Below are positions 6,737 to 30,420 of a DNA stretch of 32,278 bases, piece by piece. Under the pieces are notes generated by a model that had not been told where the DNA came from, did no database searches, and saw nothing but the letters and a program-made list of their open reading frames with translations. The stretch is from the IMG/VR virus record IMGVR_UViG_2897375277_000010; one strand, 5' to 3'. Origin of the DNA: a virus. Lineage: Duplodnaviria > Heunggongvirae > Uroviricota > Caudoviricetes. Position 1 is the stretch's first letter, and each line of letters begins with the position of its first letter. The position numbers and the translations under genes are program-made.

Positions 6737-7150
6737 TTATTGCGGTATTTCCGGCCATTCGGGATTTGCTGTATCCACACGACTGACCAGAACGCTGTAG
6801 CGTTCCCATGCTTCCAGTCGGCTGCGCTCCTCATCTGTTGCCATATTCAGCCTGACAGCGCGCTCCAGTGGCAATATGACAGACTCCGCTTCTGTCAGAA
6901 GCTTAGATTTTTGTCTCTCTGCTTGTCCTGTTAACTCTTCCTGAGTTGGCAGCTCTGGTTCTGTAACTACTGGCTGACCATATTCATTGATATTAATAGT
7001 TTTTCCTTCTGACTGCTTTTGCAAAAGATAGTTATACCATCGCTCTGATATTTCAGTAAGGTCTTCTGGCCATGAGTCATTATTCTGGTAGTCGTTTTTT
7101 AATTTATCGTCGTAAAAACCTTTCGTTGATGGGCTGTAATAAATCGTCAT
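6737..7150 (-). CDS. G: Tail fibre assembly protein (chaperone), 137 aa
   Basis: 137-aa ORF immediately downstream of H; conserved C-terminal ...[18 protein letters not shown]...PEWPEIPQ typical of tfa proteins; shorter than P2 gpG (175 aa from memory), with an AT-rich 5' half. Confidence 0.75.
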
Positions 7151-7151
7151 A

Positions 7152-9104
7152 TTAGTAACCTATAGCTGTCCAGTACATATTGCCATTACCTTCACTGTTA
7201 AATTTTGCCCCGGTTCTGGATAGTGAGTTAACAGCAATACTGTAGTCAAATCGCCCGTGTGCGTTAGTGATTGTTATGCTTGCGCAGGCAGAGGGAAAAG
7301 CCACTGGAAATGTTAAACCTGCTCCAGCATTAGAAATATACCCCCACTGCGTAATAATTCCTGTAGAGGCATCTTTATGCCAGCCATTCGCCGCTTTGGA
7401 CGCGGTATTTTTAGCCTGATAACGTGAATCAAAATTACCATAATTAGCTGGTATCACCTGACCTGTGACTCTGAGCGCATCAGACTTCAAAAACATTAAG
7501 TCTTTTGTTGCGCTTCCAACCCTGGTACGCCATTTGAAATATTCATTGCCATTATCACCAGTTTCAAACCACAGGTATGAGTCAGTATCGGAATCTGAAT
7601 CATTTTTAAATCCGATTTTCGCCCAGTCGGTGTTTCTTTCCCAAATCAGGAAGGCATCATTTATAAATTTAATACTCCCTGACATGCTACCGCCAGCTAA
7701 TGCCAACACTGCGAGCTCTGCCGGGGTCGGTTTGCTTTGTGAATTATATTCTCGTGCCCACGGTGTCCATGGTTCTGATGAATATTTGCTACGTGACCAC
7801 ACTCTTGAGGAGTTATACACATGATAAATTTGTTTTACGCCAGCATTTTTTAACACAATTAAATTTCCGGCGTTATTCTCCGGGTAGTTTAACGCAGAGC
7901 TTGTATTAGCGTTGAGCGACTGATGATACAGACCAGGAGTCATATAATCATTTAAGTTTTGATTAGCACCAATAGAAATGCTCTGCCCATTAAAAATATC
8001 CTGCGAAGTAACATTTATATCACTGGTTAACGCACGCCCATTTACTTTGCGTGTTGCTGGTACCGCCCCTGCCGCTAACTCTACCGTTTCCTGCAAACCG
8101 AGGTATTCGATAACGGCGGCAACGGTCGCTTTAGCCAGAATATCTCGCCCAACTTTTGTCAGAGTTGCCAGGCTGGCGGTGTCATTCCCCGTAAAATACG
8201 GAAACCTGTCTGCCGCAGTAGCAAGCCCGGCCAGCGCCGTCAGGGTGGCATCTTTCGGCTGCTTGCCCGCAAGCGCGTTGGTCATAGTGGTCGCAAAGTT
8301 CGGGTCATTGCCCAGTGCCGCAGCCAGCTCGTTCAGCGTATTCAGTGCGTCAGGTGATGAGTCTACAAGTGCGGCAATCGCGGCCATAACGAACGCCGTG
8401 TTTGCTATCTGAGTATTGTTAGTGCCCTTTGGCGCAGTTGGTGCGGTTGGCGTTCCGGTGAGTGCCGGACTCGACAGCGGCGCTTTCTTGTTCGTTTCAT
8501 CCATTACCGCCTTAACAGCTTTTGGCGTTGCGGCCAGTGTTTCAGACGTACTGTTGGTCGCACTGCTTAACTGAGTAAAACCTTTTGCGGTCAGCGAGGC
8601 GTCCGGGTGACGTCGCGACTGTTCGTGCTCTGCAATTTTGTCGTCAACGTAATCCTGCGTCGCCATCACCGTTGTGGTGTCAATGGTCAGCGCCACTGAG
8701 GCCACACTGCTGACGATGATGACCATGCGGCAGGTCTGCGAACGCCCTGAGCCTTCGGCAAGGGCTGGCTTATAACTTTCGGCCATGTTCGCCACGGCAA
8801 TTAACGTTCCCGCATCATCGTACAGGCCAAGCTCACGCATCCAGAAACCGCCCACCTCCGGCGGAATAACCAGCTCTGCGATAATATAATTACTGTGTCG
8901 ATTGTCCTGACTGATTTTATTCAGGGTATGTCGCCAGACCTCATTAACAAGTTTTGTCTGTCCGGCATCCGGGACAGGCAATTTACCACCACCATCCCCG
9001 ACGGCCATCGTGGTAATGTTGACCTTCCGCCCTCCCGGCGCGGTTGCCGCTGCCAGCTTTGCTGCACCGGCAGTGGTGATAACGGTTTTGAATTTTGTGC
9101 TCAT
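7152..9104 (-). CDS. H: Tail fibre protein H, 650 aa
   Basis: 650-aa ORF between I and G; N-terminal part P2 H-like, C-terminal part AT-rich and divergent (receptor-binding region). Confidence 0.85.
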
Positions 9105-10550: not shown

Positions 10551-10898
10551 TCAACTCACAGGGATGGTTAACGAAAGTGGCTGGCCGGTGTCGTTGTGCT
10601 GGCCGGTTAACGTGACCGTCATTCGCCCGTCAAAGCTGCGCGCCGTGGTGACGGATGACAGGGTGACGCGGGGTTCCCATTTCAGCACCGCCATGTAACA
10701 GGCGACCTTAATCTGCAACTCAAGCGCCGGGGTCTGCGGCTGGTCAATCATTGATGCCAGCAACGAGCCGTAATCACGACGCATCACCCGTGAGCCGACC
10801 GGTGTGCGCAGGATATCGCCGATACTCTGGCTGATATGCTCAAGGTCAGTGACAGTCAGGCCATCACTGCGATTCATTCCGAGATAACGTGCTGTCAT
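10551..10898 (-). CDS. W: Baseplate wedge protein W (GPW/gp25 family), 115 aa
   Basis: 115-aa ORF between V and J; P2 gpW length. Confidence 0.85.
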   Translation of the reverse strand: MTARYLGMNRSDGLTVTDLEHISQSIGDILRTPVGSRVMRRDYGSLLASMIDQPQTPALELQIKVACYMAVLKWEPRVTLSSVTTARSFDGRMTVTLTGQHNDTGQPLSLTIPVS

Positions 10899-11530
10899 TT
10901 TGTCCCCTGCGTCCAGCTGTCACCTGACTTAACACCACCGTGACCGTGGTCATCCACCTGAACGCCGTTAGACGTGAATTTCCCGTCGGTATGCGCGATG
11001 TTGCCGCGCATCGTCCCGCCCTTCTGCACTTCCAGCGTGCCGGTAGTCAGTTTGTTGGTGCAGACCACCTCCGGTGTGTCCAGGGTGATGCGGGTTGATG
11101 CTTTCACCATAACCACCGGCACCGAGGCAGTAACAGAATCAGAAGCCGTCACGCTGGCCGTTTTAATTCCGCTTACCGTGAGTGCACTGGTTTCGGGTTC
11201 ATACTCAATCACCGCCCCGTCAGGGAAACGGATATGCAGGGCATCCGCCGACGCAGACGGTGCGGGGTTATCGCCGGAATAAATCCCCGGCAGAACGAAC
11301 GCCGTGTCGAGTTCACCGCCCACGGCCAGAATCAGCACCTGTTCCCCCACGGAAGGTGCCCACCATGTGCGCGAACGTCCTGCACGATGGGTCAGCCACT
11401 GAAGCCAGTCAGTGCACATGCCGCCGGTCTGCACACGGCAGCGACCGGCGTTAAGGTCGGTTTCGACGACAAGGCCGGTGCGGATCATGTTGCGTATAAA
11501 GCGAAGTATTTCATTGTATTGTGTATTCAT
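10895..11530 (-). CDS. V: Baseplate spike protein V, 211 aa
   Basis: ORF track extends to 11608, but the internal ATG at 11528-11530 gives a 211-aa product (MNTQYNEILRFIRNMIRTG...) matching P2 gpV length; the upstream extension would overlap the divergent promoter region. Confidence 0.8.
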   Translation of the reverse strand: MNTQYNEILRFIRNMIRTGLVVETDLNAGRCRVQTGGMCTDWLQWLTHRAGRSRTWWAPSVGEQVLILAVGGELDTAFVLPGIYSGDNPAPSASADALHIRFPDGAVIEYEPETSALTVSGIKTASVTASDSVTASVPVVMVKASTRITLDTPEVVCTNKLTTGTLEVQKGGTMRGNIAHTDGKFTSNGVQVDDHGHGGVKSGDSWTQGTK

Positions 11531-11616
11531 TCGAGAATGATGATTCTGTACAATCTCGAAGTAAATCACGTCACGCTTTTTGGTGCACAGAACAACAAGG
11601 AACAACAAAATCCATT
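11531..11616. promoter_or_regulatory. Divergent intergenic region: expected late promoter for V-W-J-I-H-G and promoter/RBS of the divergent cargo gene
   Basis: 86-bp gap between the V start (minus) and the cargo ATG at 11617 (plus); AAGGA at 11597-11601 upstream of that ATG; promoter assignment is by position only. Confidence 0.4.
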
Positions 11617-12690
11617 ATGAATATTTGCTTTTTTTCATCAGAAACAACTAAAAGATTGCTCAAAGATTACCAAACCTTTTTGGAGAACCTTACCCCTGAC
11701 ACAGATTTTGAATCAGGCCGAAACAAAATAATCATTCAAGCAATAGACTTCATTTCAAAAAAACCAGAAGATTGGGACGAAAAATCCCTACACAGCATTA
11801 AAAGACTCGGCGATGAATTTAAAAGATTACTAAAAGAAAAGGGAGATAATGAAGACAGCATCAATCTTATATTCACTTATTTCCTTAGGTTCATTATTGA
11901 ACCAAGCATTTTCTCTACAGAAGTAGAGTCACCCGACTCACTCCCAGAATACATCAAAGATTTCGCTCAGTATAACTATGGTAAATTCGATACTCGAAGC
12001 CAAAAAAGCATAGATATATCTCTAAGAGGAATGCCATTAGCAATAGCTAAGGAGATTCTAAGCTCTGGCAATGTGGATACATATAAAAAATATCTCAATA
12101 AGTTAAACGAAGGCCATAAACTTCTCGAAGAATATGATTCTACCTTCAAAGAACAACAGGCTAAAGTAGAGTCAATTAAAGAATCATTAAAGGGATACGA
12201 GACTGCTTTCAATTTCGTTGGACTCTTTGATGGCTTCAATTCACTTGGCAAAAAGAAAGCGAATGAAATTTTAGCATCAAGACTCATTCTTATTTTTTTA
12301 GCTATAATTATTCCATCCCCCTTAATATATTATGGCATTCACAAATTACCGGCCCTCGAAGCAACAAATGCTGCCACATATTTCATGTCAGCGCTACCTT
12401 TTGCATCAGTTACATTGATTTTCATGTATTACTTTAGAGTTGTACTGATAAATCACATATCGTTACGAACTCAGATTATGCAAATAGAACTTAGAAAGAC
12501 CCTTTGTCAGTTCATTCAGAGTTATAGCGACTATTCCTCAAAGATAAAGAAAAACAACCAAGATGCTCTTTCAAAATTTGAAGATGTAGTATTTTCAAAC
12601 ATCATGCTATCCGATGATAAGATACCATCTACATTTGATGGCATTGAACAAATAGCATCGCTAATCAATTCACTGAAAAATGGCAAGTAA
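11617..12690 (+). CDS. AT-rich cargo protein, 357 aa, with two predicted transmembrane helices near the C-terminus; function unknown
   Basis: ORF track 11521..12690 starts at a GTG that overlaps V; the first ATG is at 11617 (MNICFFSSETTKRLL...). Coding sequence is visibly AT-rich against the GC-rich flanking tail genes. Hydrophobic segments LILIFLAIIIPSPLIYYGI and ATYFMSALPFASVTLIFMYYF; Lys/Glu-rich helical N-terminal domain. Occupies the P2 orf30 position between S and V, on the opposite strand. Confidence 0.7.
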   Translation: MNICFFSSETTKRLLKDYQTFLENLTPDTDFESGRNKIIIQAIDFISKKPEDWDEKSLHSIKRLGDEFKRLLKEKGDNEDSINLIFTYFLRFIIEPSIFSTEVESPDSLPEYIKDFAQYNYGKFDTRSQKSIDISLRGMPLAIAKEILSSGNVDTYKKYLNKLNEGHKLLEEYDSTFKEQQAKVESIKESLKGYETAFNFVGLFDGFNSLGKKKANEILASRLILIFLAIIIPSPLIYYGIHKLPALEATNAATYFMSALPFASVTLIFMYYFRVVLINHISLRTQIMQIELRKTLCQFIQSYSDYSSKIKKNNQDALSKFEDVVFSNIMLSDDKIPSTFDGIEQIASLINSLKNGK

Positions 12691-12692
12691 TA

Positions 12693-12727
12693 GTAAAAGA
12701 CCACCTCCTGAGGAGGTGGCTTTTCAG
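12693..12727. terminator. Bidirectional rho-independent terminator between the cargo gene (+) and tnpA (-)
   Basis: Perfect 8-bp stem CCACCTCC/GGAGGTGG with a 3-nt loop (12701-12719), flanked by GTAAAAGA on the left and CTTTTCAG on the right, giving a T-run on either strand. Confidence 0.6.
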
Positions 12728-12772
12728 AATGCCCCCTATAAGGGGGGGAGGGCGAATGTCATATTCCGTTTT

Positions 12773-13207
12773 CTACTCTAGCAACTCCATCTGCTGTTCA
12801 TGTGTTTGTTCCATCTTTTCCTGATGCCTCACATATCGTCTGATAATTTCTTCGTTCACGCCTACCCTATCAACAAAGTAACCCCGCGACCAAAAATGGT
12901 TTCCCCATAACTTCTTCCTGATATGCGGGAATCGATTGTAGAGTCTGATTGCACTGCGACCTTTCAGATGCCCCATCAGAGTAGATATTGAGATTTTTGG
13001 CGGCACTATTACGACAAGATGCACATAATCTGGCTGTACATTTAACTCCAGAACCTCGCAATCTTTTATTCCGCAAAGAATATAGATGGTTCTGTACAGC
13101 TCCTTGCCCAATTTATCCCTCAGGATCCTAAAGCGGTACTTTGGCGTCCAGACTATGTGATATTTGCAATGCCAATATACATGTGATGAACTTCTGTAAA
13201 GCCCCAT
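12773..13207 (-). CDS. tnpA: IS200-family transposase TnpA (HUH Y1 transposase), 144 aa
   Basis: ORF 12773..13264; likely start at ATG 13205-13207 (MGLYRSSSHVYWHCKYHIVWTPKYR...). Contains the HUH-type motif YVHLVVIVPPK and the downstream Tyr region WSRGYFVDRVG characteristic of IS200 TnpA. Confidence 0.8.
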   Translation of the reverse strand: MGLYRSSSHVYWHCKYHIVWTPKYRFRILRDKLGKELYRTIYILCGIKDCEVLELNVQPDYVHLVVIVPPKISISTLMGHLKGRSAIRLYNRFPHIRKKLWGNHFWSRGYFVDRVGVNEEIIRRYVRHQEKMEQTHEQQMELLE

Positions 13208-13428
13208 GTCAGTTTGTCTCCTTTTACTTGTGGTGAGTAAGCAGAGATATTCCGACATGGGCATTCTTCAGGCTATAGCCTTACAGGTTCAATCACCACC
13301 TCCCTAGTAGGTGGTTTAGGGATAACAATAAAAGGCCAATAACTGGCCTTTTATTTATTAACGTAAAAACTCAAAATAAACCATGCTAAATCAAATGATT
13401 TCATTTTTATATTCTCAGATGATTAAAG

Positions 13429-13881
13429 CTAGCGATTCAGGTGAGCCAGAATAATCTCTTCAATCATCTGCACATCCTCACCGGTAAAGCCGAGCAGAGG
13501 ACGCGCCGGATAATCAATTTTCTTACCGTCTTTCCGGGTTTCTTCCGACAGACCGAACTGATGCACACTGGCGATTTTCGGCGACTTCCCGCCGTAAAAT
13601 TCCATTGATGCCTGTTCCGGGCTGGCGCGGATATGCAAAAAACGACTGGTGATAAGTTTCGCAAACATTTTTCGCTTAACACGACCAGTCTTTTTTCTGG
13701 CGCTCTGCTGCTGGCGTGGCGCGTAGGGTGTGCCGTCCGGGGCTTTCTGTGCCATCACCCGACGCTGCTGACTCTGACGCAGACGTTTCGCCAGTTCGGC
13801 GCTCAGTCGCCGACGCCCTGACGGTGACAGCGATTCAATCAGTCCGGTCAGCCGGTCTTCAAAACGCTTAAACTCATTCAT
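13429..13881 (-). CDS. S: Tail completion protein S, 150 aa
   Basis: 150-aa ORF; P2 gpS length; overlaps the R stop; last gene of the O...S operon. Confidence 0.82.
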   Translation of the reverse strand: MNEFKRFEDRLTGLIESLSPSGRRRLSAELAKRLRQSQQRRVMAQKAPDGTPYAPRQQQSARKKTGRVKRKMFAKLITSRFLHIRASPEQASMEFYGGKSPKIASVHQFGLSEETRKDGKKIDYPARPLLGFTGEDVQMIEEIILAHLNR

Positions 13882-14341
13882 CCCACTTGCTCACCAGTTC
13901 GCCATTGATGTAAAGCTCCACCGGGCGGGTGACCGGCTCCGGCGGCGGGGGTTCCGGGATATTCTTCACATGCAGCGCACCATCAACCTCGCTGACCAGC
14001 GTGCGCTCGGTCAGCATCAGGCTGATGCTGATATCAAAGCTGCTGTCATTGTTGATGTCCGCATAAAACGTGAAGCCCTTTTTCTGGCCTTCGTCGGTGG
14101 TCATGATGTCGGGCTGATTTTCCCGCAGCCACGCCAGCACCGGCACAATGAGCAGGTCAAAATCACCGGTAAAGTCGGTCACAATGACATTGAGCGTGTA
14201 ACGCTTTTCGAATGACAGCGACGTCGCCAGTGTGGAGGCAATACTCCCGTTATCCACGAATATCCGCAGCATCTCGGGGCTTGTTTTCAGCACCGTGACG
14301 GCATCAGTCAGCGCCCTGCGCAGGCTGTCGGGTTTGAGCAT
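13874..14341 (-). CDS. R: Tail completion protein R, 155 aa
   Basis: 155-aa ORF; P2 gpR length and synteny. Confidence 0.82.
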   Translation of the reverse strand: MLKPDSLRRALTDAVTVLKTSPEMLRIFVDNGSIASTLATSLSFEKRYTLNVIVTDFTGDFDLLIVPVLAWLRENQPDIMTTDEGQKKGFTFYADINNDSSFDISISLMLTERTLVSEVDGALHVKNIPEPPPPEPVTRPVELYINGELVSKWDE

Positions 14342-22938: not shown

Positions 22939-23478
22939 TCAATCATCATGATGAGAGAACCTAGCATTTACTATTCTTGAGTGAAGATTGTTTGCAAATG
23001 ATAAGTTGCTTAAAATAACACTAAACACACACTTTATTTGTAACCAGCACATAAAATAAACAAAGGTGATTCCAATCATTCTAATAAGATCAGAATACAC
23101 CACTGAACTCGATAGCACAGAGCCTATTGATTTAAACAGATAAACAAACAAGATCGAAAGCATTACTACTGCTGAAGTAATTACAACGTAAATTAGCTTT
23201 TCAATTCGAGGTGCATCTTTCGTATTCTTTATGTAATCAACATCATCATTGACAATGCTTGCAATTGCATTCGGATATAAAAAACCAATCCATAATCCAA
23301 CTATGGTAAAAATTGCAGCAGATATGTTTTGCAAAACACCCAGTATATCTTTTATATCACTATAGTTAACATGAGCTTTCAGCCAATAGGAGGCCGCAGC
23401 AATTAGAAACAGAATTAACAAATTCCATTTCCATTGTATTATCAATGCCTTTAAATCCTTACTTGTTTGAGGTGACAT
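22939..23478 (-). CDS. Predicted four-helix integral membrane protein, 179 aa; candidate effector of a two-gene cargo operon
   Basis: ATG at 23476-23478 immediately follows the TAA of the upstream gene (TAAATG); four hydrophobic segments of about 20 aa each; strongly AT-rich. Confidence 0.75.
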   Translation of the reverse strand: MSPQTSKDLKALIIQWKWNLLILFLIAAASYWLKAHVNYSDIKDILGVLQNISAAIFTIVGLWIGFLYPNAIASIVNDDVDYIKNTKDAPRIEKLIYVVITSAVVMLSILFVYLFKSIGSVLSSSVVYSDLIRMIGITFVYFMCWLQIKCVFSVILSNLSFANNLHSRIVNARFSHHDD

Positions 23479-24489
23479 TTATGCCTCCGCCGTTTTTAAA
23501 GATTTTTCTTCCACCTCTTCATTATAAAGGATTGTTTGGAGTAAATCATCACGAACAGCCTTTATTTCATGAAGGAGTTTTTCTGGAGAGAAATGCTCAT
23601 CCCCGGTAGAATCGCTGACAATTAATGCAGTTCTCGCCATATATTTTTTTAACCATAATGGGCGAGATGAATCTTTAAGAACAAAGCCAACATCAACCCA
23701 GTCAACATCATCTACATTTCTATCCAATAGTTGTTTTATTTCCTCTTCCGAAGGAGCGCCATCTACTCGAACCTCAATTTTTTTAGGTTTTGTAAACTTG
23801 GTTTGTTCTGTTCCCAAGAAATCCGATAGTACATTACTCACCAGACGTAATAACGGTTGCCGGGTATCCTCAACTTTTGCAACCGTAGTATCACGAATAA
23901 TTGTCTGAACAATTTTATCTCGTACATCAAGAATATTCGTCCCTGGTTTATTAACCTTCGTCACTTCAGCCTTAAATTTAAAAACGCAATTACACTTGCG
24001 TCCATTTTCATCTACATGCTTGAAAATTGTTTTAGAAATAAGAATGTCATCTTCCGAACATGAAGAACGAGCTCTAGTAAATGAGGTAGTATCCTTTTCC
24101 CTACCAAAATCACCGTGATTTACTACAAAATTAAAAATATAATTGCTTAACCTCGGTGTATCTGCACCTGAATGAGGAAATATAATGGATGCAATCTTGT
24201 TATATTCAGGAATTATCCAATAATAACATGGCTCAACCCAAATATAGTCTTTTCCATTCGTTTCTGTCTTTACTGTATCATTTTCTGTAGCACCAACAGG
24301 TGCGTTTTTTTTAACAGCGTGCAAACGTCCCTTCGCGGAACCTAATGCACGATACATTACCATCACCCGATCTTTTGTATCTGGATCGACAGCCACTCCT
24401 CGTGAGTAAGTTCTGGCTCTTAGCGGATGAGTTCCCGTATCCCACGGAATTGACTCCTCAACGCTTTTGTCATCAAGCCAAGCCTGCAA
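23479..24489 (-). CDS. Soluble cargo protein of unknown function, up to 336 aa (292-294 aa if started at the ATGs at 24363 or 24357)
   Basis: Long AT-rich ORF; first in-frame start is a TTG at 24487-24489 with no Shine-Dalgarno sequence, and internal ATGs lie at 24361-24363 and 24355-24357. No motif assignable by eye; tightly coupled to the downstream membrane protein. Confidence 0.7.
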   Translation of the reverse strand: MQAWLDDKSVEESIPWDTGTHPLRARTYSRGVAVDPDTKDRVMVMYRALGSAKGRLHAVKKNAPVGATENDTVKTETNGKDYIWVEPCYYWIIPEYNKIASIIFPHSGADTPRLSNYIFNFVVNHGDFGREKDTTSFTRARSSCSEDDILISKTIFKHVDENGRKCNCVFKFKAEVTKVNKPGTNILDVRDKIVQTIIRDTTVAKVEDTRQPLLRLVSNVLSDFLGTEQTKFTKPKKIEVRVDGAPSEEEIKQLLDRNVDDVDWVDVGFVLKDSSRPLWLKKYMARTALIVSDSTGDEHFSPEKLLHEIKAVRDDLLQTILYNEEVEEKSLKTAEA

Positions 24490-24763: not shown

Positions 24764-24970
24764 CTATCGTCTGCGTGGTGGTGGCGCAACTCTGGACTGA
24801 CCGATATAGTTAAACCGCCCGTAATTATCCCGGACTATTTCGGCACACCCGACTAGCTCATCGGGCGTCAGATTTTCGTTGACCATAATCTGCTGTAGAC
24901 GGTGAACAATGGCCATCAGCTTGATATTTTTAGTTTTATGGTGCGGTATCTCGCCTGGTATTCTGTGCAT
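24764..24970 (-). CDS. Small hypothetical protein, 68 aa, translationally coupled to the upstream ASCH-like gene
   Basis: ORF track 24764..24982 begins at a GTG; the ATG at 24968-24970 overlaps the upstream stop (TAATG); last gene of the early operon before a 274-bp gap. Confidence 0.5.
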   Translation of the reverse strand: MHRIPGEIPHHKTKNIKLMAIVHRLQQIMVNENLTPDELVGCAEIVRDNYGRFNYIGQSRVAPPPRRR

Positions 24971-25425
24971 TATCCAAGCCACCCATTTTGCTTTGCACGC
25001 TCCACCTGTTCATCTGAATAGTTCCATGCTCCATCCGTGGCAACCATTGCCCCGCCAGACATCCCCGTCTCTGGTTCATACATAACAGCAAGGCCGAGCT
25101 GATGCATAATTTCATGATTAATTCTGAATACCAGGCCACGCTCACTAAGTTCTTTCCAGTTCACAATCTTATATGCGCCCGTATTAAGCAGCTCAATACT
25201 TAGCAAGACATAATCTTCCAGCCAGTCTGACAGGTCAGTAACGTCTGTTATCCGGGCTTCAACCTTTCGCCCCGTAAACACACCCTGCACCCATTCATGC
25301 AAAATCAACGTGTCCCCGCGCTCATAATTACGGTCATTTTTCCGAAACTCTGCGCGTTTCTTTCCTTCCAGCACAAGGTCAAAATATTTTGCGTGCAGCT
25401 TTACCTCGTGAATTTTTGCCATCAT
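24970..25425 (-). CDS. ASCH-like (PUA-fold) domain protein, 151 aa, translationally coupled to A
   Basis: ATGATG start at 25420-25425 overlaps the A stop TGA; GGAG upstream; contains GKKRAEFR, which fits the ASCH GxKxxExR signature; the C-terminal part carries an HEIMH (HExxH) motif. Confidence 0.65.
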   Translation of the reverse strand: MMAKIHEVKLHAKYFDLVLEGKKRAEFRKNDRNYERGDTLILHEWVQGVFTGRKVEARITDVTDLSDWLEDYVLLSIELLNTGAYKIVNWKELSERGLVFRINHEIMHQLGLAVMYEPETGMSGGAMVATDGAWNYSDEQVERAKQNGWLG

Positions 25426-27707
25426 TTCCACTCCATTACTGTTGAAAATCCCGGCCACTCATCAGCGACCGGATACGTGAATTTTTTCCCGTCATAATTT
25501 ACGGTTGCGCCACGCGCCAGCGCCTCAAGCTCCCATCGCTGCGGCCTGATACCGTTCTGAGCAAGGTCAACGCGGATACGGGTAATTTGCATTCGTTCCG
25601 ACCGGGTCAGTCTGGCAGATGGTGCAATTTCATGCGGTTTTAACGGGCTTCCGTTTCTTTGCTGACGGTTTGATGTTCTCAGGCCGTGTTTTAATGCACC
25701 CCTGAGCGCCCTCACGACCTCCGGGTCATTCCATTCGATAACACCGTCATCAACCAGATTAAGCACTGCTGCGGCGTGCTCAGAAGGTGTGGGAGCCGGT
25801 AACGCAGTATCACCGCCGGTGAGCTTTCCACAGTTATTGACAGGACTCCGAGGCGCGGCGATGCCGCTTTTTAAAGTCAAAGGCTCAACGACAGGAACTT
25901 TCGGAACAATGCGCCAGTCCGTGGTTCTGGTGATATGAATATGACGCGCGCCGAGATGCGGCGCGTAAATGCCGACCACTCTCTCGACTTCTTCCTCGTA
26001 CTCGTTAACGTCATCCGACGGGCTACGGGCGACCCTGACAGTCTGACAATCGCGCGGGACATTTGCCCCGCCCTGCGCGCTGATATACAACGCAAAATCA
26101 CCACTGTCTGCAGCGGCGCGTGCAGCCTCGACGCGCTCGTCAAACTCATCAGCAATGCTGACGCCGCGAGGCAATTTGCGTAGTTCACGGTAAGCCCCCA
26201 TTGTCGGCAGACCAACCGTTTTAAATTGCGGGATGCGCCACGTTGACGCCCATGCGGTAACAGCCGCGGCAGTATCTTTCAGCGGTCTGCCGGTATCATT
26301 ATCGAGCTGACCATCCAGTGCATAGCCGTCGATATTTTTTGAGATGTATTTCGCGATATACCCCGCAGCACCGCCCCGGTTAAGATGTTTTGCCTGAAAA
26401 CGGTTTCGCGCGGCTCCTCTTTCGTCTCCATCCTCTTTGAGCGCGTAGCGACGCATGATTTCAATAATCTGGTTACGCTGGCGTGGATTACAAAAAAGCA
26501 TCATATGCCAGTGCGGCGTTCCGTCGTGGTGTGGCTCGACGACACGCAAACCGTAGACCTGTAAATCATTATCCTTGAATGCCGTGCGCATCAGGCTCCA
26601 GATACGGCAGAGATAACGCTGCGCATCCTTTGGATTAAATGCCTCATCGTTCCAGCCGTGATTAAGCTGCACGGTTTTACTTTCGCCTTTTCCGACCTGA
26701 CGTGTCGGGTGATACTTTGACGGCGCGGTCAGCGTGATAAACATCCCCACATCGCCCTCTGCGGCGGCGTAACGCTCAATACCGGCAATGGTGTTCATCA
26801 ACTCCATCCGACGAATTTCAGGATTAGAAATACTGCCCATCACCTTACTGATAAGGTCGATGCGCTCGCCGGTTTCCCTGTTTTCGAGGTCACACGATTT
26901 AAGAAATTCCAGATTTGCCTGGCGGCGAGCACGCACATCACGAATGGCGTGTTTACTGGCATAAGGAGAACGGTCTTTATTCACCTCCCCGACAGCAATC
27001 AGTAACGCCTCATGCCAGCGCATACGCTGGCCTTTAAGCTGATGAGTCCACCACTCATCGTTAAACAGACGGGCAATGGCAGAATATGCCTGCCTCGTGG
27101 TCATCAGTCCTTTACGGTATTTTTTCCAGTAGAGAGGGGAAATATTGAAAGCACGTGCAGCGCCAGCAACATGACCATAGAGGTGAGCCTGCGCCTCATC
27201 CGTAAACAGCGATTCTTTCTCGCCATGCGCATCCACCCAGGCATCGCAGAGTTCCCCATACATCATGAAAAGCTGTGATGAGATACGGGCGGCAAACTTT
27301 TTCAGCTCCTTGTCATTCATCCCCGGCAGGCGCGCATACTGGTCGCGCTCTGCCAGAAACAGCAACGACGCGTCGGTGTTCATTTCATGGCGCTGATTCA
27401 CGCGCTCAATGCGCGGCCATAAACGACGCTGAAAAGTGGATGTGAGGAAATAAAACCCGTGCACCGGGCTTTTATTGCGCCGGATGTAGTCATAGCGTGA
27501 AGTAAACAGCGAGCGCAAAAAGTAAGGCAGGCGGTTAATCGTGGATAAAACACCTTGCACCTGACGCATCTCGTCACGTGTAAGGGGTCTTTCGCGCCCG
27601 ACAGCCTCGCGTGGCGCGTTCCATGCATAAGCACCGGTAAACGCCTTACCGGTGCCTGCAGCAAATGCTGACGGAGGGACAAAACGCCCGGAGGCTTTAA
27701 CGGTCAT
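25422..27707 (-). CDS. A: Replication initiation protein A (rolling-circle nickase), 761 aa
   Basis: ORF track 25422..27749; start chosen at MTVKASGRFVPPSAF... (ATG 27705-27707) to give the P2 gpA length of 761 aa. Confidence 0.88.
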   Translation of the reverse strand: MTVKASGRFVPPSAFAAGTGKAFTGAYAWNAPREAVGRERPLTRDEMRQVQGVLSTINRLPYFLRSLFTSRYDYIRRNKSPVHGFYFLTSTFQRRLWPRIERVNQRHEMNTDASLLFLAERDQYARLPGMNDKELKKFAARISSQLFMMYGELCDAWVDAHGEKESLFTDEAQAHLYGHVAGAARAFNISPLYWKKYRKGLMTTRQAYSAIARLFNDEWWTHQLKGQRMRWHEALLIAVGEVNKDRSPYASKHAIRDVRARRQANLEFLKSCDLENRETGERIDLISKVMGSISNPEIRRMELMNTIAGIERYAAAEGDVGMFITLTAPSKYHPTRQVGKGESKTVQLNHGWNDEAFNPKDAQRYLCRIWSLMRTAFKDNDLQVYGLRVVEPHHDGTPHWHMMLFCNPRQRNQIIEIMRRYALKEDGDERGAARNRFQAKHLNRGGAAGYIAKYISKNIDGYALDGQLDNDTGRPLKDTAAAVTAWASTWRIPQFKTVGLPTMGAYRELRKLPRGVSIADEFDERVEAARAAADSGDFALYISAQGGANVPRDCQTVRVARSPSDDVNEYEEEVERVVGIYAPHLGARHIHITRTTDWRIVPKVPVVEPLTLKSGIAAPRSPVNNCGKLTGGDTALPAPTPSEHAAAVLNLVDDGVIEWNDPEVVRALRGALKHGLRTSNRQQRNGSPLKPHEIAPSARLTRSERMQITRIRVDLAQNGIRPQRWELEALARGATVNYDGKKFTYPVADEWPGFSTVMEWK

Positions 27708-28193: not shown

Positions 28194-28483
28194 TACCAGT
28201 TCCTTTTGTCGTTCAGTTTCTTAAATTCATCAGCGCAATAGCTGGTGACTTCTGTCGTTAATTTTGTCAGTTCATCCACGGAGGAAATTTGCTTATGAAA
28301 TACAGCGCGTTTAACAAGTAAATTGACCACATCAGACAGGAGATTTAATTTATCCGCATAAATGGCTATAGTTGATTCAACCATATCCCCAGTGTTTTTA
28401 TCGCGTTTAATATCAGCTAGCGACAAATCACCATTTTTCATAACTGAAATCTTCAGCCAGTTATTAAGCAATATATTTTTCAT
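28193..28483 (-). CDS. AT-rich hypothetical protein, 96 aa (early-operon moron)
   Basis: ATG at 28481-28483 overlapping the upstream stop (ATGA); AT-rich; no recognisable motif. Confidence 0.55.
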   Translation of the reverse strand: MKNILLNNWLKISVMKNGDLSLADIKRDKNTGDMVESTIAIYADKLNLLSDVVNLLVKRAVFHKQISSVDELTKLTTEVTSYCADEFKKLNDKRNW

Positions 28484-28725
28484 TCGCTATATGCCCTCTC
28501 CGCAGAATCAATCATTTCCCGGCCATTATCGGTAATACAGAAACCTTCTCTTGATTTGGTCACAAGCCCCCATTTCCCCATTGCTATAAATGCTTTTTCC
28601 ACACGACTAGGCCAGGAGCGGAAGACATCGCTTGATGGATGTAGTGGAGTCTTGTCATCTAATTTTTTAAGTAATGAAAGTTGATAATCTGTTAAGCGTT
28701 TCCTGAACCATTTTGTATTTGTCAT
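28480..28725 (-). CDS. Hypothetical protein, 81 aa (early-operon moron)
   Basis: ORF track starts at a TTG (28731); ATG at 28723-28725 is preceded by AGGAAAG; no recognisable motif. Confidence 0.5.
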   Translation of the reverse strand: MTNTKWFRKRLTDYQLSLLKKLDDKTPLHPSSDVFRSWPSRVEKAFIAMGKWGLVTKSREGFCITDNGREMIDSAERAYSE

Positions 28726-28739
28726 CTCCAACTTTCCTG

Positions 28740-28952
28740 TTATTTATTGAGTCCTAGATTATGGAATTTGGCAGACTCCTGACTGAGCAACTCGACTATC
28801 TCCACGCGGGATAACTCCGCCTTTGTGATGTGGCGAATCATGGCATCAAGATGAGACGAAAAGCGCGTTGCTGCGTCGGCCTGTGCTTCGGTTCTGGCCT
28901 GTTGCAGCATTAATGAGTATTTACCGCACTGATTTTCAGAAACTGTATGCAT
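28740..28952 (-). CDS. Early-operon hypothetical protein, 70 aa (P2 orf80/81 position)
   Basis: 70-aa ORF directly downstream of B in the same orientation; ATG at 28950-28952. Confidence 0.55.
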
Positions 28953-29015
28953 GACTTTCTCCAGGCAAAAAGAAGCCCCGCACGATTAAGTGCGTTAAAA
29001 ACTCTGGTTAATTAC

Positions 29016-29516
29016 TTAATGCAGATATTGCTCTGGTTTTACCGACGTCAGAATTGTCGGTGCATACTCAAACAGACTGAATAATTCACGTAATGCACGG
29101 AATAAAGCATCACGCCAGTAACATGATTCTTCATTAATTCGCCAGTACGGCTGGTTAAATTCTTTTTCTGTCAGTCGTGCGTGCATAAATAAAGTACGGC
29201 GCTGACTGACTGTTAAAAAACTAATATATGCATACTCACTTGCACCGACCTGACGACGTTTTGAGAATGCCCCACGCAATTCATCAATTGCACAAACCAG
29301 CCGTTCACGTTCGACGTCGTTCATTTCTTCAAAACGCATCGTTGCGTGACGCTGTTTTAACTGCGCATGGAAGCAAACTGTTAGCCGTTCGCGCTCCATC
29401 ATCTGATTATAATAATCACATGTATCCTGCCAGCGAGGAACGGCAAGATGCTTACCAATTATCCGGCGCATAGCTGCTGGCTGTTTTTCAACGAGATTGA
29501 GCGTCATCACTGTCAT
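29016..29516 (-). CDS. B: Replication protein B (helicase loader), 166 aa
   Basis: 166-aa ORF (MTVMTLNLVEKQPAAMRRIIGKH...), P2 gpB length; ATG at 29514-29516 overlapping the upstream stop. Confidence 0.85.
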   Translation of the reverse strand: MTVMTLNLVEKQPAAMRRIIGKHLAVPRWQDTCDYYNQMMERERLTVCFHAQLKQRHATMRFEEMNDVERERLVCAIDELRGAFSKRRQVGASEYAYISFLTVSQRRTLFMHARLTEKEFNQPYWRINEESCYWRDALFRALRELFSLFEYAPTILTSVKPEQYLH

Positions 29517-29683
29517 TTCCAGACCCTCCGGCTTTTCAGAAAGGTCAGAGCCTTCTTTAACGAACTCTGTTTTTTGGTGCGGATAATGATTCCCTTGCGT
29601 CCTTTCCCGTGGGTGATGGTGAAGTCAATCGCCCTAGGGCTTTCGTTACGCAATAACTGAGCAATACAACGAGGTTCCTGCAT
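29513..29683 (-). CDS. Small basic early protein, 56 aa (P2 orf78 position)
   Basis: ORF track 29513..29761 starts at a TTG; the ATG at 29681-29683 is preceded by a strong SD (AGGAGGAG, 4-nt spacing); stop overlaps the B start. Confidence 0.6.
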   Translation of the reverse strand: MQEPRCIAQLLRNESPRAIDFTITHGKGRKGIIIRTKKQSSLKKALTFLKSRRVWK

Positions 29684-29783
29684 AACTCCTCCTGAAACAG
29701 AGCCGGTTTTTAGCCATGTCCGGCACATGGTCTTGTGGTAAGATCGAATCGCCAAAAACAACCAACCACAAGCGAGGTAATAA

Positions 29784-29978
29784 ATGAATAATCAAAATAT
29801 TGACGAACTTATAACCACTCTCGAAAAAGCGGTTGCATTAGCAAATACCCTACCAACTCCAATGGGAGATTTTGAGGACGCTAAAAAAGTGGATGAATTA
29901 ACTATTCAATTAAGAGAGATCATTCACCCTAAAAAGCCAGTCCAACTCAAAGGCTTTATTGATATAAATCATTTTTAA
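29784..29978 (+). CDS. Antisense small protein, 64 aa, hydrophilic, AT-rich, with its own promoter-like and RBS signals
   Basis: ATG at 29784 preceded by GAGGT with 6-nt spacing; an extended -10-like TGgTAAGAT at 29735-29743; convergent with, and overlapping by 23 bp, the 154-aa minus-strand gene. Confidence 0.45.
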   Translation: MNNQNIDELITTLEKAVALANTLPTPMGDFEDAKKVDELTIQLREIIHPKKPVQLKGFIDINHF

Positions 29979-30420
29979 AATAGCATCTTGCATCCGTATG
30001 CTGTTTATACGGATGCGTCATCATGTCAAAAATACTTTTCCAGTCATCAAGCCCTATTGACCATTTAATACTATTTATATCGCCTGATTTAGAAATTATC
30101 GTTTCACGAAGAGCCTTAGCGAGTTCCATGCGCTCTTGAACGGTCATACCAACGCATTCATATTTAATGCGCAAAAAAGAGTCATGAAATAAAGATTTCA
30201 AATTCAGCCGTAGAATTTCTTCATCACCATCTGAACTAATAAAAACAAGTTCATCATTATCCAAAATGATATTTTGTTTTCTCAATTCATCGGCTGATTT
30301 ATATTCTTTCGTACTATTAGCAAACTCACTATACGTAATAGTCAGGCTGTTAGATGGTGATGCATCTTCAAGGTTTCCTCTGATGATAGTCACCGATGTT
30401 TTATTTAAATCTTGCCTCAT
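29956..30420 (-). CDS. AT-rich hypothetical protein, 154 aa, translationally coupled downstream of cox (moron)
   Basis: ATG at 30418-30420 preceded by AAGGAGGAG, which directly follows the cox TAA stop; AT-rich; acidic Asp/Glu-rich protein with no recognisable motif. Confidence 0.7.
   Translation of the reverse strand: MRQDLNKTSVTIIRGNLEDASPSNSLTITYSEFANSTKEYKSADELRKQNIILDNDELVFISSDGDEEILRLNLKSLFHDSFLRIKYECVGMTVQERMELAKALRETIISKSGDINSIKWSIGLDDWKSIFDMMTHPYKQHTDARCYFKNDLYQ

Follow-up and report, generated by a model that had tools for sequence, protein, structure and literature searches.

The window analysed here, a 32,278-nucleotide stretch of viral DNA (IMG/VR record IMGVR_UViG_2897375277_000010), is overall a near-complete P2-like prophage, with gpD, gpA, Cox, C and Int included. 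At the junction between its tail genes S and V, the site of orf30 in P2, lies an intact gene on the plus strand (11617-12690, stop codon 12688-12690) that encodes a protein of 357 amino acids; these are called the cargo gene and the cargo protein below. The gene is under purifying selection, and its product is predicted to be an inner-membrane protein whose anchor is a helical hairpin and whose two termini lie in the cytoplasm. The protein belongs to a new, unannotated family, in a niche of a known kind, namely the cargo of phage hotspots. What might such a protein do? The interpretation that we favour, with a confidence somewhat short of even, is that it is an accessory (moron-type) protein that would be expressed in the lysogen and would shield it against other phages.

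The open reading frame that contains the gene spans 11521-12690 (+) with a GTG start, while translation from the ATG at 11617 gives the 357-residue product. The ATG is taken as the real start because conservation within the family sets in at residues 5-6 (FF). An initial annotation, made from the DNA sequence alone, had described an AT-rich gene of about 1.07 kb encoding 357 amino acids. Both the reading frame and the base composition bear this out: the G+C content (GC) is 0.34, compared with about 0.57 in the flanks (0.34-0.37 over the stretch 11.6-12.8 kb versus 0.56-0.59 on both sides). Could this be a spurious or decaying frame in AT-rich junk beside an insertion sequence (IS)? The AT-rich stretch, the adjacent IS and the lack of an annotated function would suit that explanation, but 357 codons are improbable by chance in DNA of 34% GC, the protein aligns collinearly and over its full length with hundreds of relatives, and the IS lies outside the frame. 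The ratio of nonsynonymous to synonymous substitutions (dN/dS) between the cargo gene and its Escherichia coli allele is 0.23. By parts, the comparison of the Escherichia albertii and E. coli alleles yields a ratio of 0.28 in the N-terminal part and of 0.10 in residues 196-357. Conservation and purifying selection have thus effectively refuted the idea of a spurious frame, to which we attach a negligible probability. Hypothetical proteins of E. albertii are 100% identical to the cargo protein.

The cargo protein matches the PHROG family phrog_9373 (E=5e-112), whose function label is "unknown". At 90% identity the family falls into 496 clusters and at 50% identity into at least 939 (E<=1e-3), and it extends from the Enterobacterales to Moritella, Methylobacter, Sedimenticola and Amphritea. 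Nearly all members are about 355 residues long and all are annotated as hypothetical. They share one architecture, and among the best 150 of the 939 representatives the C-terminal module was not found fused to any other N-terminal domain; a protein from a Klebsiella phage-plasmid belongs to the family over its full length and has an extended coiled coil. A sequence profile search of the PDB returned nothing below E=0.5, and no viral-fold relative of the family was found. Pfam scans of 37 members at E<=0.1 gave only scattered noise among the best 25 of 43 matched families.

The architecture of the protein is defined by two hydrophobic segments in the Kyte-Doolittle profile (residues ~218-241 and 255-283). 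Both are helical in an AlphaFold2 model and occupy an unchanged position in 36 of 37 relatives, so that the two hydrophobic helices of the initial annotation are recovered by hydropathy, model and relatives alike. The dimensions of the flanking parts have had to be revised: the cytoplasmic N-terminal domain is about 215 rather than about 235 residues long, and the C-terminal tail has 74 residues and not about 95. The enrichment in Lys and Glu that had been noted is real but modest (K 10.6%, E 8.9%). Across 37 relatives, the mean number of K and R residues per 15 positions is 2.8 and 3.1 in the two flanks of the hairpin and 0.9 in its 13-residue loop; both ends of the protein are therefore predicted to be cytoplasmic. 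The model is all-helical, with a mean predicted local distance difference test score (pLDDT) of 78. Its N-terminal bundle is modelled with confidence, since the block means over residues 1-140 are mostly 86-97, with one block at 69. The bundle is followed by a 44-residue helix (154-197) and then by the hairpin, whose second transmembrane (TM) helix runs on for about 30 residues into the cytoplasm.

How is conservation distributed along this architecture? The cytoplasmic domain and the long helix (residues 1-195; 11617-12201, +) are variable, with a mean pairwise identity of 26-30%. They are followed on the cytoplasmic side of the membrane by a conserved juxtamembrane segment, AFNFVGLxxGFxxLxxxKxxE (residues 196-217; 12202-12267, +), which has 60.5% mean pairwise identity and in which all of 37 sequences agree at N199, F200, L203, G206, F207, L210 and K214. 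TM helix 1 (residues 218-241; 12268-12339, +; hydropathy up to 2.33 in a 19-residue Kyte-Doolittle window) leads into a short periplasmic loop of about 13 residues (242-254; 12340-12378, +), the least conserved part of the protein, with 9.6% mean pairwise identity. TM helix 2 (residues 255-283; 12379-12465, +), which was likewise assigned by hydropathy, has 52% mean identity; its cytoplasmic half carries the conserved motif IYYFRVxLxN, and Y271, F273, R274 and L277 are invariant. The most conserved cytoplasmic module is the tail (residues 284-357; 12466-12687, +), with 58-64% mean identity, many invariant residues and the succession of motifs QxxQIELRKxLCxFIQxY ... KFExxIFSNIM ... KxPSTFDG. 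The same gradient is seen at both short and long range. Between the window protein and the E. coli allele, residues 1-195 are 64% and the C-terminal part 91% identical, while in distant phages the identity is 20-32% for the N-terminal domain and 46-52% for the C-terminal module.

Because the loop is so poorly conserved and the cytoplasmic segments reach 58-64% identity, a function that faces the cytoplasm is favoured over recognition in the periplasm. A fast-evolving N-terminal domain joined to a constrained membrane module is the usual layout of single-protein immune proteins that combine a sensor and an effector. It is proposed that the N-terminal domain of the cargo protein is likewise a sensor or regulatory part, and that the C-terminal module is the effector. 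The cargo protein would then act as a single-protein system to protect the lysogen. The variable cytoplasmic domain might sense a cue of infection or keep the protein inactive, and the long helix would join this domain to the conserved module formed by the juxtamembrane segment, TM helix 2 and the C-terminal tail. The membrane module might oligomerise and permeabilise or depolarise the inner membrane, leading to abortive infection. Such a pore or permeabilisation mechanism is rated as less probable than the anti-phage role as such.

Prophage exclusion proteins are often small membrane proteins. One alternative is superinfection exclusion, in which the protein would block the entry of an incoming genome at the inner membrane without killing the cell, as do T4 Imm, P22 SieA and HK97 gp15. 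The cargo protein has features in common with such proteins: it is encoded by a prophage, divergently from the late genes and in an accessory slot (PMC3091744), and forms an inner-membrane hairpin. However, its only periplasmic residues are those of the poorly conserved loop, and more than 85% of the protein, together with all of its conserved motifs, is either cytoplasmic or in TM helix 2. With 357 residues and a folded cytoplasmic domain of 215, the protein is also unlike the known small exclusion proteins, and the family members that lie in restriction-modification and toxin-antitoxin islets or on phage-plasmids (see below) fit a generic immunity function equally well. Exclusion in this sense is improbable in our estimate.

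The initial annotation had suggested a kinship with two-helix effectors of the SLATT type. A divergent SLATT protein would also have a pair of neighbouring TM helices with conserved cytoplasmic helices after them, and SLATT proteins have a proposed pore-forming suicide role. In scans with PADLOC (PADLOC-DB v2.0.0, candidate systems included), one of 37 members matched the RTasSLATT model (E=1e-3). Among 137 further diverse representatives there was again a single match (E=0.035), in the company of 23 unrelated families with one hit each (e.g., Cas3, Csn2 and AbiZ), which is the level of noise; two marginal matches in 174 members do not sustain the kinship. Moreover, no Pfam SLATT match was present in the 37 members at E<=0.1 among the best 25 of 43 matched families. 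The cargo protein differs further in having its own 215-residue N-terminal domain, and in more than 90 loci the gene stands alone, unaccompanied by SMODS, SLOG, TIR or reverse-transcriptase genes. Membership of the SLATT family is very unlikely.

Other membrane proteins offer looser parallels. Lactococcal AbiZ has a cytoplasmic N-terminal part and C-terminal TM helices. Together with lambda RexB, T4 Imm and P22 SieA, it belongs to the membrane proteins by which phages or plasmids confer protection against other phages, and from all of these the cargo protein differs in size, motifs and details of topology. One of 137 representatives matched the AbiZ model (E=7e-4), which is again at noise level. 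The resemblance to two-helix channels such as CorA and the mitochondrial calcium uniporter (MCU) is a topological analogy only, with a score in the range of generic helices and no sequence similarity. In CorA (GMN) and MCU (DIME) the selectivity motif is found in the loop between the TM helices, which in the cargo family is the least conserved segment and carries no such motif.

Where does the gene sit in the phage? The orf30 region is one of three variable regions of P2-like phages that carry horizontally acquired genes (PMC3091744; PMC6823313), the other two being the TO-region with old/tin and the Z-region with fun (PMC3091744). In P2 itself the slot holds orf30, which is divergent from V, and the cargo gene is absent. 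P2 orf30 had been thought small in the initial annotation but measures 786 bp (261 amino acids); the R18C paper (PMC6823313) gives its length as '261-bp-long', whereas the P2 record (locus L013, 814-1599) shows 786 bp and 261 residues. The cargo protein was also compared with other occupants. Relationship to P2 Orf30 was rejected, as alignment of the family profile with hhalign gave a probability of 0.1% and E=0.57, and no homology was found to the 246-residue R18C-type occupant.

The S/V slot was surveyed in E. coli on 44 full junctions, taken as a spread sample; it was empty (~66 bp) in 29 and held orf30 in eight, the 246-residue R18C-type protein in three and the cargo gene in two. The remaining two junctions each held a protein of an immune type. 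One is a 359-residue RelA/SpoT-domain protein that matches PADLOC PDC-S33 (strain S88; L008, 2039-3118), and the other a 508-residue AAA-ATPase-TIR protein that matches PADLOC PDC-S59 (L009, 1976-3502). Because of the RelA/SpoT and AAA-TIR cargo, the orf30 slot can be said to behave as a defence-type hotspot. All of the S/V cargos have a GC of 0.33-0.36. The alternative occupants agree with the view, taken from the start, that the gene is accessory cargo at the orf30 position, and the gene has the S/V location, the dispensability and the atypical GC of such cargo. Like other occupants of the orf30 region it is AT-rich, non-essential and replaceable, and it is divergent from V as is P2 orf30 (PMC3091744, PMC6823313); it differs in being the first occupant noted whose large family spans genera and keeps to the site.

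There are similar parallels with the defence cargo of the P2 and P4 hotspots, such as old, tin, fun, the PD-T4 and PD-lambda systems and Rst (Rousset 2022, PMC9122126; Vassallo 2022, PMC9519451). Both are prophage-borne, low in GC, flanked by core genes and present as alleles that are swapped by recombination. The published slots, however, are Q/A, Z/fun and int-C, and the cargo protein has no homology to the systems found there. Recent hotspot papers centre on these three slots and touch the late-gene hotspots only loosely; neither the S/V slot nor the cargo family is described in the P2/P4 hotspot papers.

An allele of the cargo gene with about 81% identical DNA is carried by 60 of 5426 complete E. 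coli genomes, at the same S/V junction, in the same orientation and lacking the IS. The position and orientation are also the same in two Yersinia phages and in Pectobacterium, Pantoea, Citrobacter and Kosakonia. A scan of viral contigs, which is blind to non-phage contexts and so inflates the positional fidelity, yielded 80 loci with 29-100% identity. In 68 of them the gene is preceded by V, on the other strand at a distance of 84-516 bp, and followed by S; five further loci are incomplete but consistent with the V-cargo-S arrangement. On a divergent P2-like viral contig (L085, 6001-7098) the family gene is again at the S/V junction but is co-oriented with S and V. The initial annotation had considered the gene to be horizontally acquired cargo. 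Its accessory nature stands, while a recent one-off insertion does not, given relatives of down to 29% identity at the same junction in several genera. Nor is the gene a conserved structural component of the phage backbone, as P2 and about 96% of the E. coli P2-like prophages are without it.

The family is also found elsewhere. In a P2-like prophage of Moritella, the member occupies the int-CI slot. Others lie in an integrase-AlpA-primase island, on Klebsiella phage-plasmids, or with either Phd/ParE and a Lon-like protease or a restriction-modification system and PemK as neighbours. Co-location with defence genes was judged qualitatively, on about 14 genome contexts. The existence of members outside the S/V slot means that the function is not tied to P2 structural genes. 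Between E. albertii and E. coli, the synonymous divergence (dS) of the cargo gene is 0.63 and that of S is 0.13; the former is far above that of the backbone, which points to a replacement of alleles by recombination. In one locus (L016) there is a tandem V-cargo-S duplication with two divergent paralogues (7001-8065 and 12151-13287). The Pantoea cypripedii paralogues, of 354 and 378 residues, are 37.8% and 37.5% identical to the window protein, respectively. Two further viral contigs (L068 and L069) have extra V and S fragments that are consistent with a similar duplication.

The arrangement of the junction has a bearing on when the gene is expressed. Upstream of the cargo gene is V (10895-11530, -), the baseplate spike gene, which was identified by the Pfam domains Phage_base_V and Phage_spike. 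Downstream lie the tail completion gene S (13429-13881, -; Pfam Phage_tail_S, E=6.5e-44) and, adjoining S, the gene R (13874-14341, -), likewise confirmed by Pfam. The cargo gene is on the strand opposite to V/W/J and S/R, and the gap between it and V is exactly 86 bp (11531-11616), as was first annotated on both counts; this divergent intergenic region is also conserved in the E. coli allele. Besides the divergence from V, a terminator hairpin after the stop codon in IS-free loci marks the gene as a transcription unit. As a divergent unit of its own, the cargo gene is probably active in the lysogen and not part of late gene expression. Within the gap, a -10-like TACAAT was read by eye on the plus strand at 11549-11554, and is a putative promoter of the cargo gene.

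The gap also contains a trace of the control of V. In most of the junction variants inspected, a GTTGT...ACA element is found at a fixed distance of about 65 nucleotides upstream of V, and is probably the activator site of the late PV promoter. In six loci (L001, L009, L010, L012, L014 and L018) the element reads TGT-N12-ACA exactly in three and TGT-N10-ACA in three. Upstream of V in the window the exact TGT-N12-ACA is absent, and there is only a degenerate GTTGT...CAC copy at 11582-11596, within the 5' leader of the cargo gene.

Has the gene, then, a role in the P2 lineage that has nothing to do with defence? It could act in the timing of lysis or of late gene expression, in prophage maintenance, in the interplay with P4 or in a conversion that affects host fitness. 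The positional fidelity would fit such a role, with 68 of the 80 viral loci at the same junction over the whole range of identity and the co-oriented L085 gene there as well. The C-terminal domain is 46-52% identical in distant phages, close to the 42-50% of S, which is compatible with long co-residence. In addition, the conserved element in front of V, which is presumably the site of the PV late promoter, overlaps with the 5' leader of the cargo gene, and a lysis cassette is nearby. On the other hand, P2 and most P2-like prophages are viable without the gene, and members occur outside P2-like phages altogether, next to restriction-modification and toxin-antitoxin genes, in the primase island and on phage-plasmids. 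The Moritella member is in a different slot, and the fidelity is overstated by a survey of viral contigs that could not see other contexts. A role confined to the P2 lineage is accordingly judged unlikely. The Y-K-lysA-lysB lysis cassette is present in the window separately from the cargo gene. A class II holin was considered and rejected: such proteins have fewer than about 150 residues, as opposed to 357, and the cargo gene is on the opposite strand and outside the cassette.

An anti-phage role of the cargo protein remains the preferred reading, although it is a tentative one. The immune-type cargo of the same slot and the company kept by members elsewhere point in this direction. In a recent study, most of the P4-hotspot genes of unknown function that were tested gave protection against phages, and many such genes in P2 hotspots were predicted to be antiviral (bioRxiv 10.64898/2026.02.27.708500).

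Several observations weigh against this role. Scans of the window protein with Pfam, NCBIfam and PADLOC gave no match, and PADLOC scans of the 174 members (37 and 137 diverse representatives) gave only scattered noise. In the literature, phrog_9373 and the accessions tried are not mentioned, and the family is not named. Location is weak evidence, for the slot also accommodates orf30 and the 246-residue protein and is empty in about two thirds of the sample. That about 69 of 80 viral loci share a single junction within a single group of phages may indicate a P2-specific role. A promoter scan for the sigma-70 consensus called none on the plus strand upstream of the cargo gene, and the ribosome-binding site of the gene is weak or distant. 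Finally, the predicted template modelling score of the structural model is only 0.45, and its last 28 residues have a pLDDT below 50.

A more ambitious version of the anti-phage reading can be put forward, and we consider it doubtful. The family would be a widespread single-protein immune system in which a fast-evolving cytoplasmic sensor gates a conserved two-helix module, and this module assembles into a lethal pore. It would have long held a third defence slot (S/V) of P2-like phages in the Enterobacterales and marine Gammaproteobacteria, and an interlocking of its promoter with the late promoter PV would switch immunity at entry into the lytic cycle. About one in three E. coli genomes carries a P2-like prophage, and many defence systems have already come from the hotspots of these prophages. 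The S/V (orf30) slot, whose variability has been known for two decades, has not been mined for defence genes. If the cargo protein is antiviral, it would represent a new class of single-gene membrane effector and extend the search for defence genes to another site; otherwise, an unrecognised function of the P2 lineage would be at hand. As a short gene that stands alone, it lends itself readily to experimental tests.

On its other side, the cargo gene is separated from S by an IS200/IS605-family element (~12700-13333, ends +/- 6 bp, -) with a tnpA gene (12773-13264, -; Pfam Y1_Tnp, E=1e-38). Copies of this element that are about 97% identical are present in 380 of 5426 E. coli genomes, and it is missing from the cargo-bearing E. 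coli loci L006 and L007. Alignment with these IS-free loci shows that it was inserted between the cargo stop codon and the native terminator. The latter is a bidirectional terminator-like hairpin, GGCCAATAACTGGCC, followed by a T-run (TTTT), which lies at 13334-13352 in the window and directly 3' of the stop codon in the IS-free E. coli loci. The element was initially taken as a sign of ongoing remodelling, but it is a bystander: it has cut the cargo gene off from its terminator while leaving both the cargo gene and S intact. The ends of the element carry similar GC-rich hairpins (ACCACCTCC..GGAGGTGG) at 12700-12720 and 13294-13316. The first of these is now directly 3' of the cargo stop codon and may replace the displaced native terminator. 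Another IS occurs in other prophages: the IS21-family element ISEc12 lies inside V in several independent E. coli P2-like prophages (H62, H69, H79, H83 and H93; L007, 2699-5914), and this recurrent insertion should inactivate the phage.

The prophage may have further regions of variable content. The canonical Q/A (old-tin) hotspot contains two low-GC open reading frames of 179 and 336 residues (22939-24489, -), which match the components PDC-M18B and PDC-M18A of a PADLOC candidate system (E=7e-17 and 8e-27); neither contains a Pfam domain. A protein with DUF3850/ASCH and DUF7415 domains (24970-25458, -) is encoded between this cargo and the replication gene A. Just upstream of cox/C/int, a low-GC stretch (28400-30420; 0.35-0.46) may be another variable region, and its open reading frames at 29016-29516 and 29956-30420 gave no Pfam or PADLOC match. 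A dip in GC to about 0.41-0.43 is also seen at 6800-8000, over the 3' part of the tail-fibre gene H and the assembly gene G, and is consistent with a swapped host-range module.

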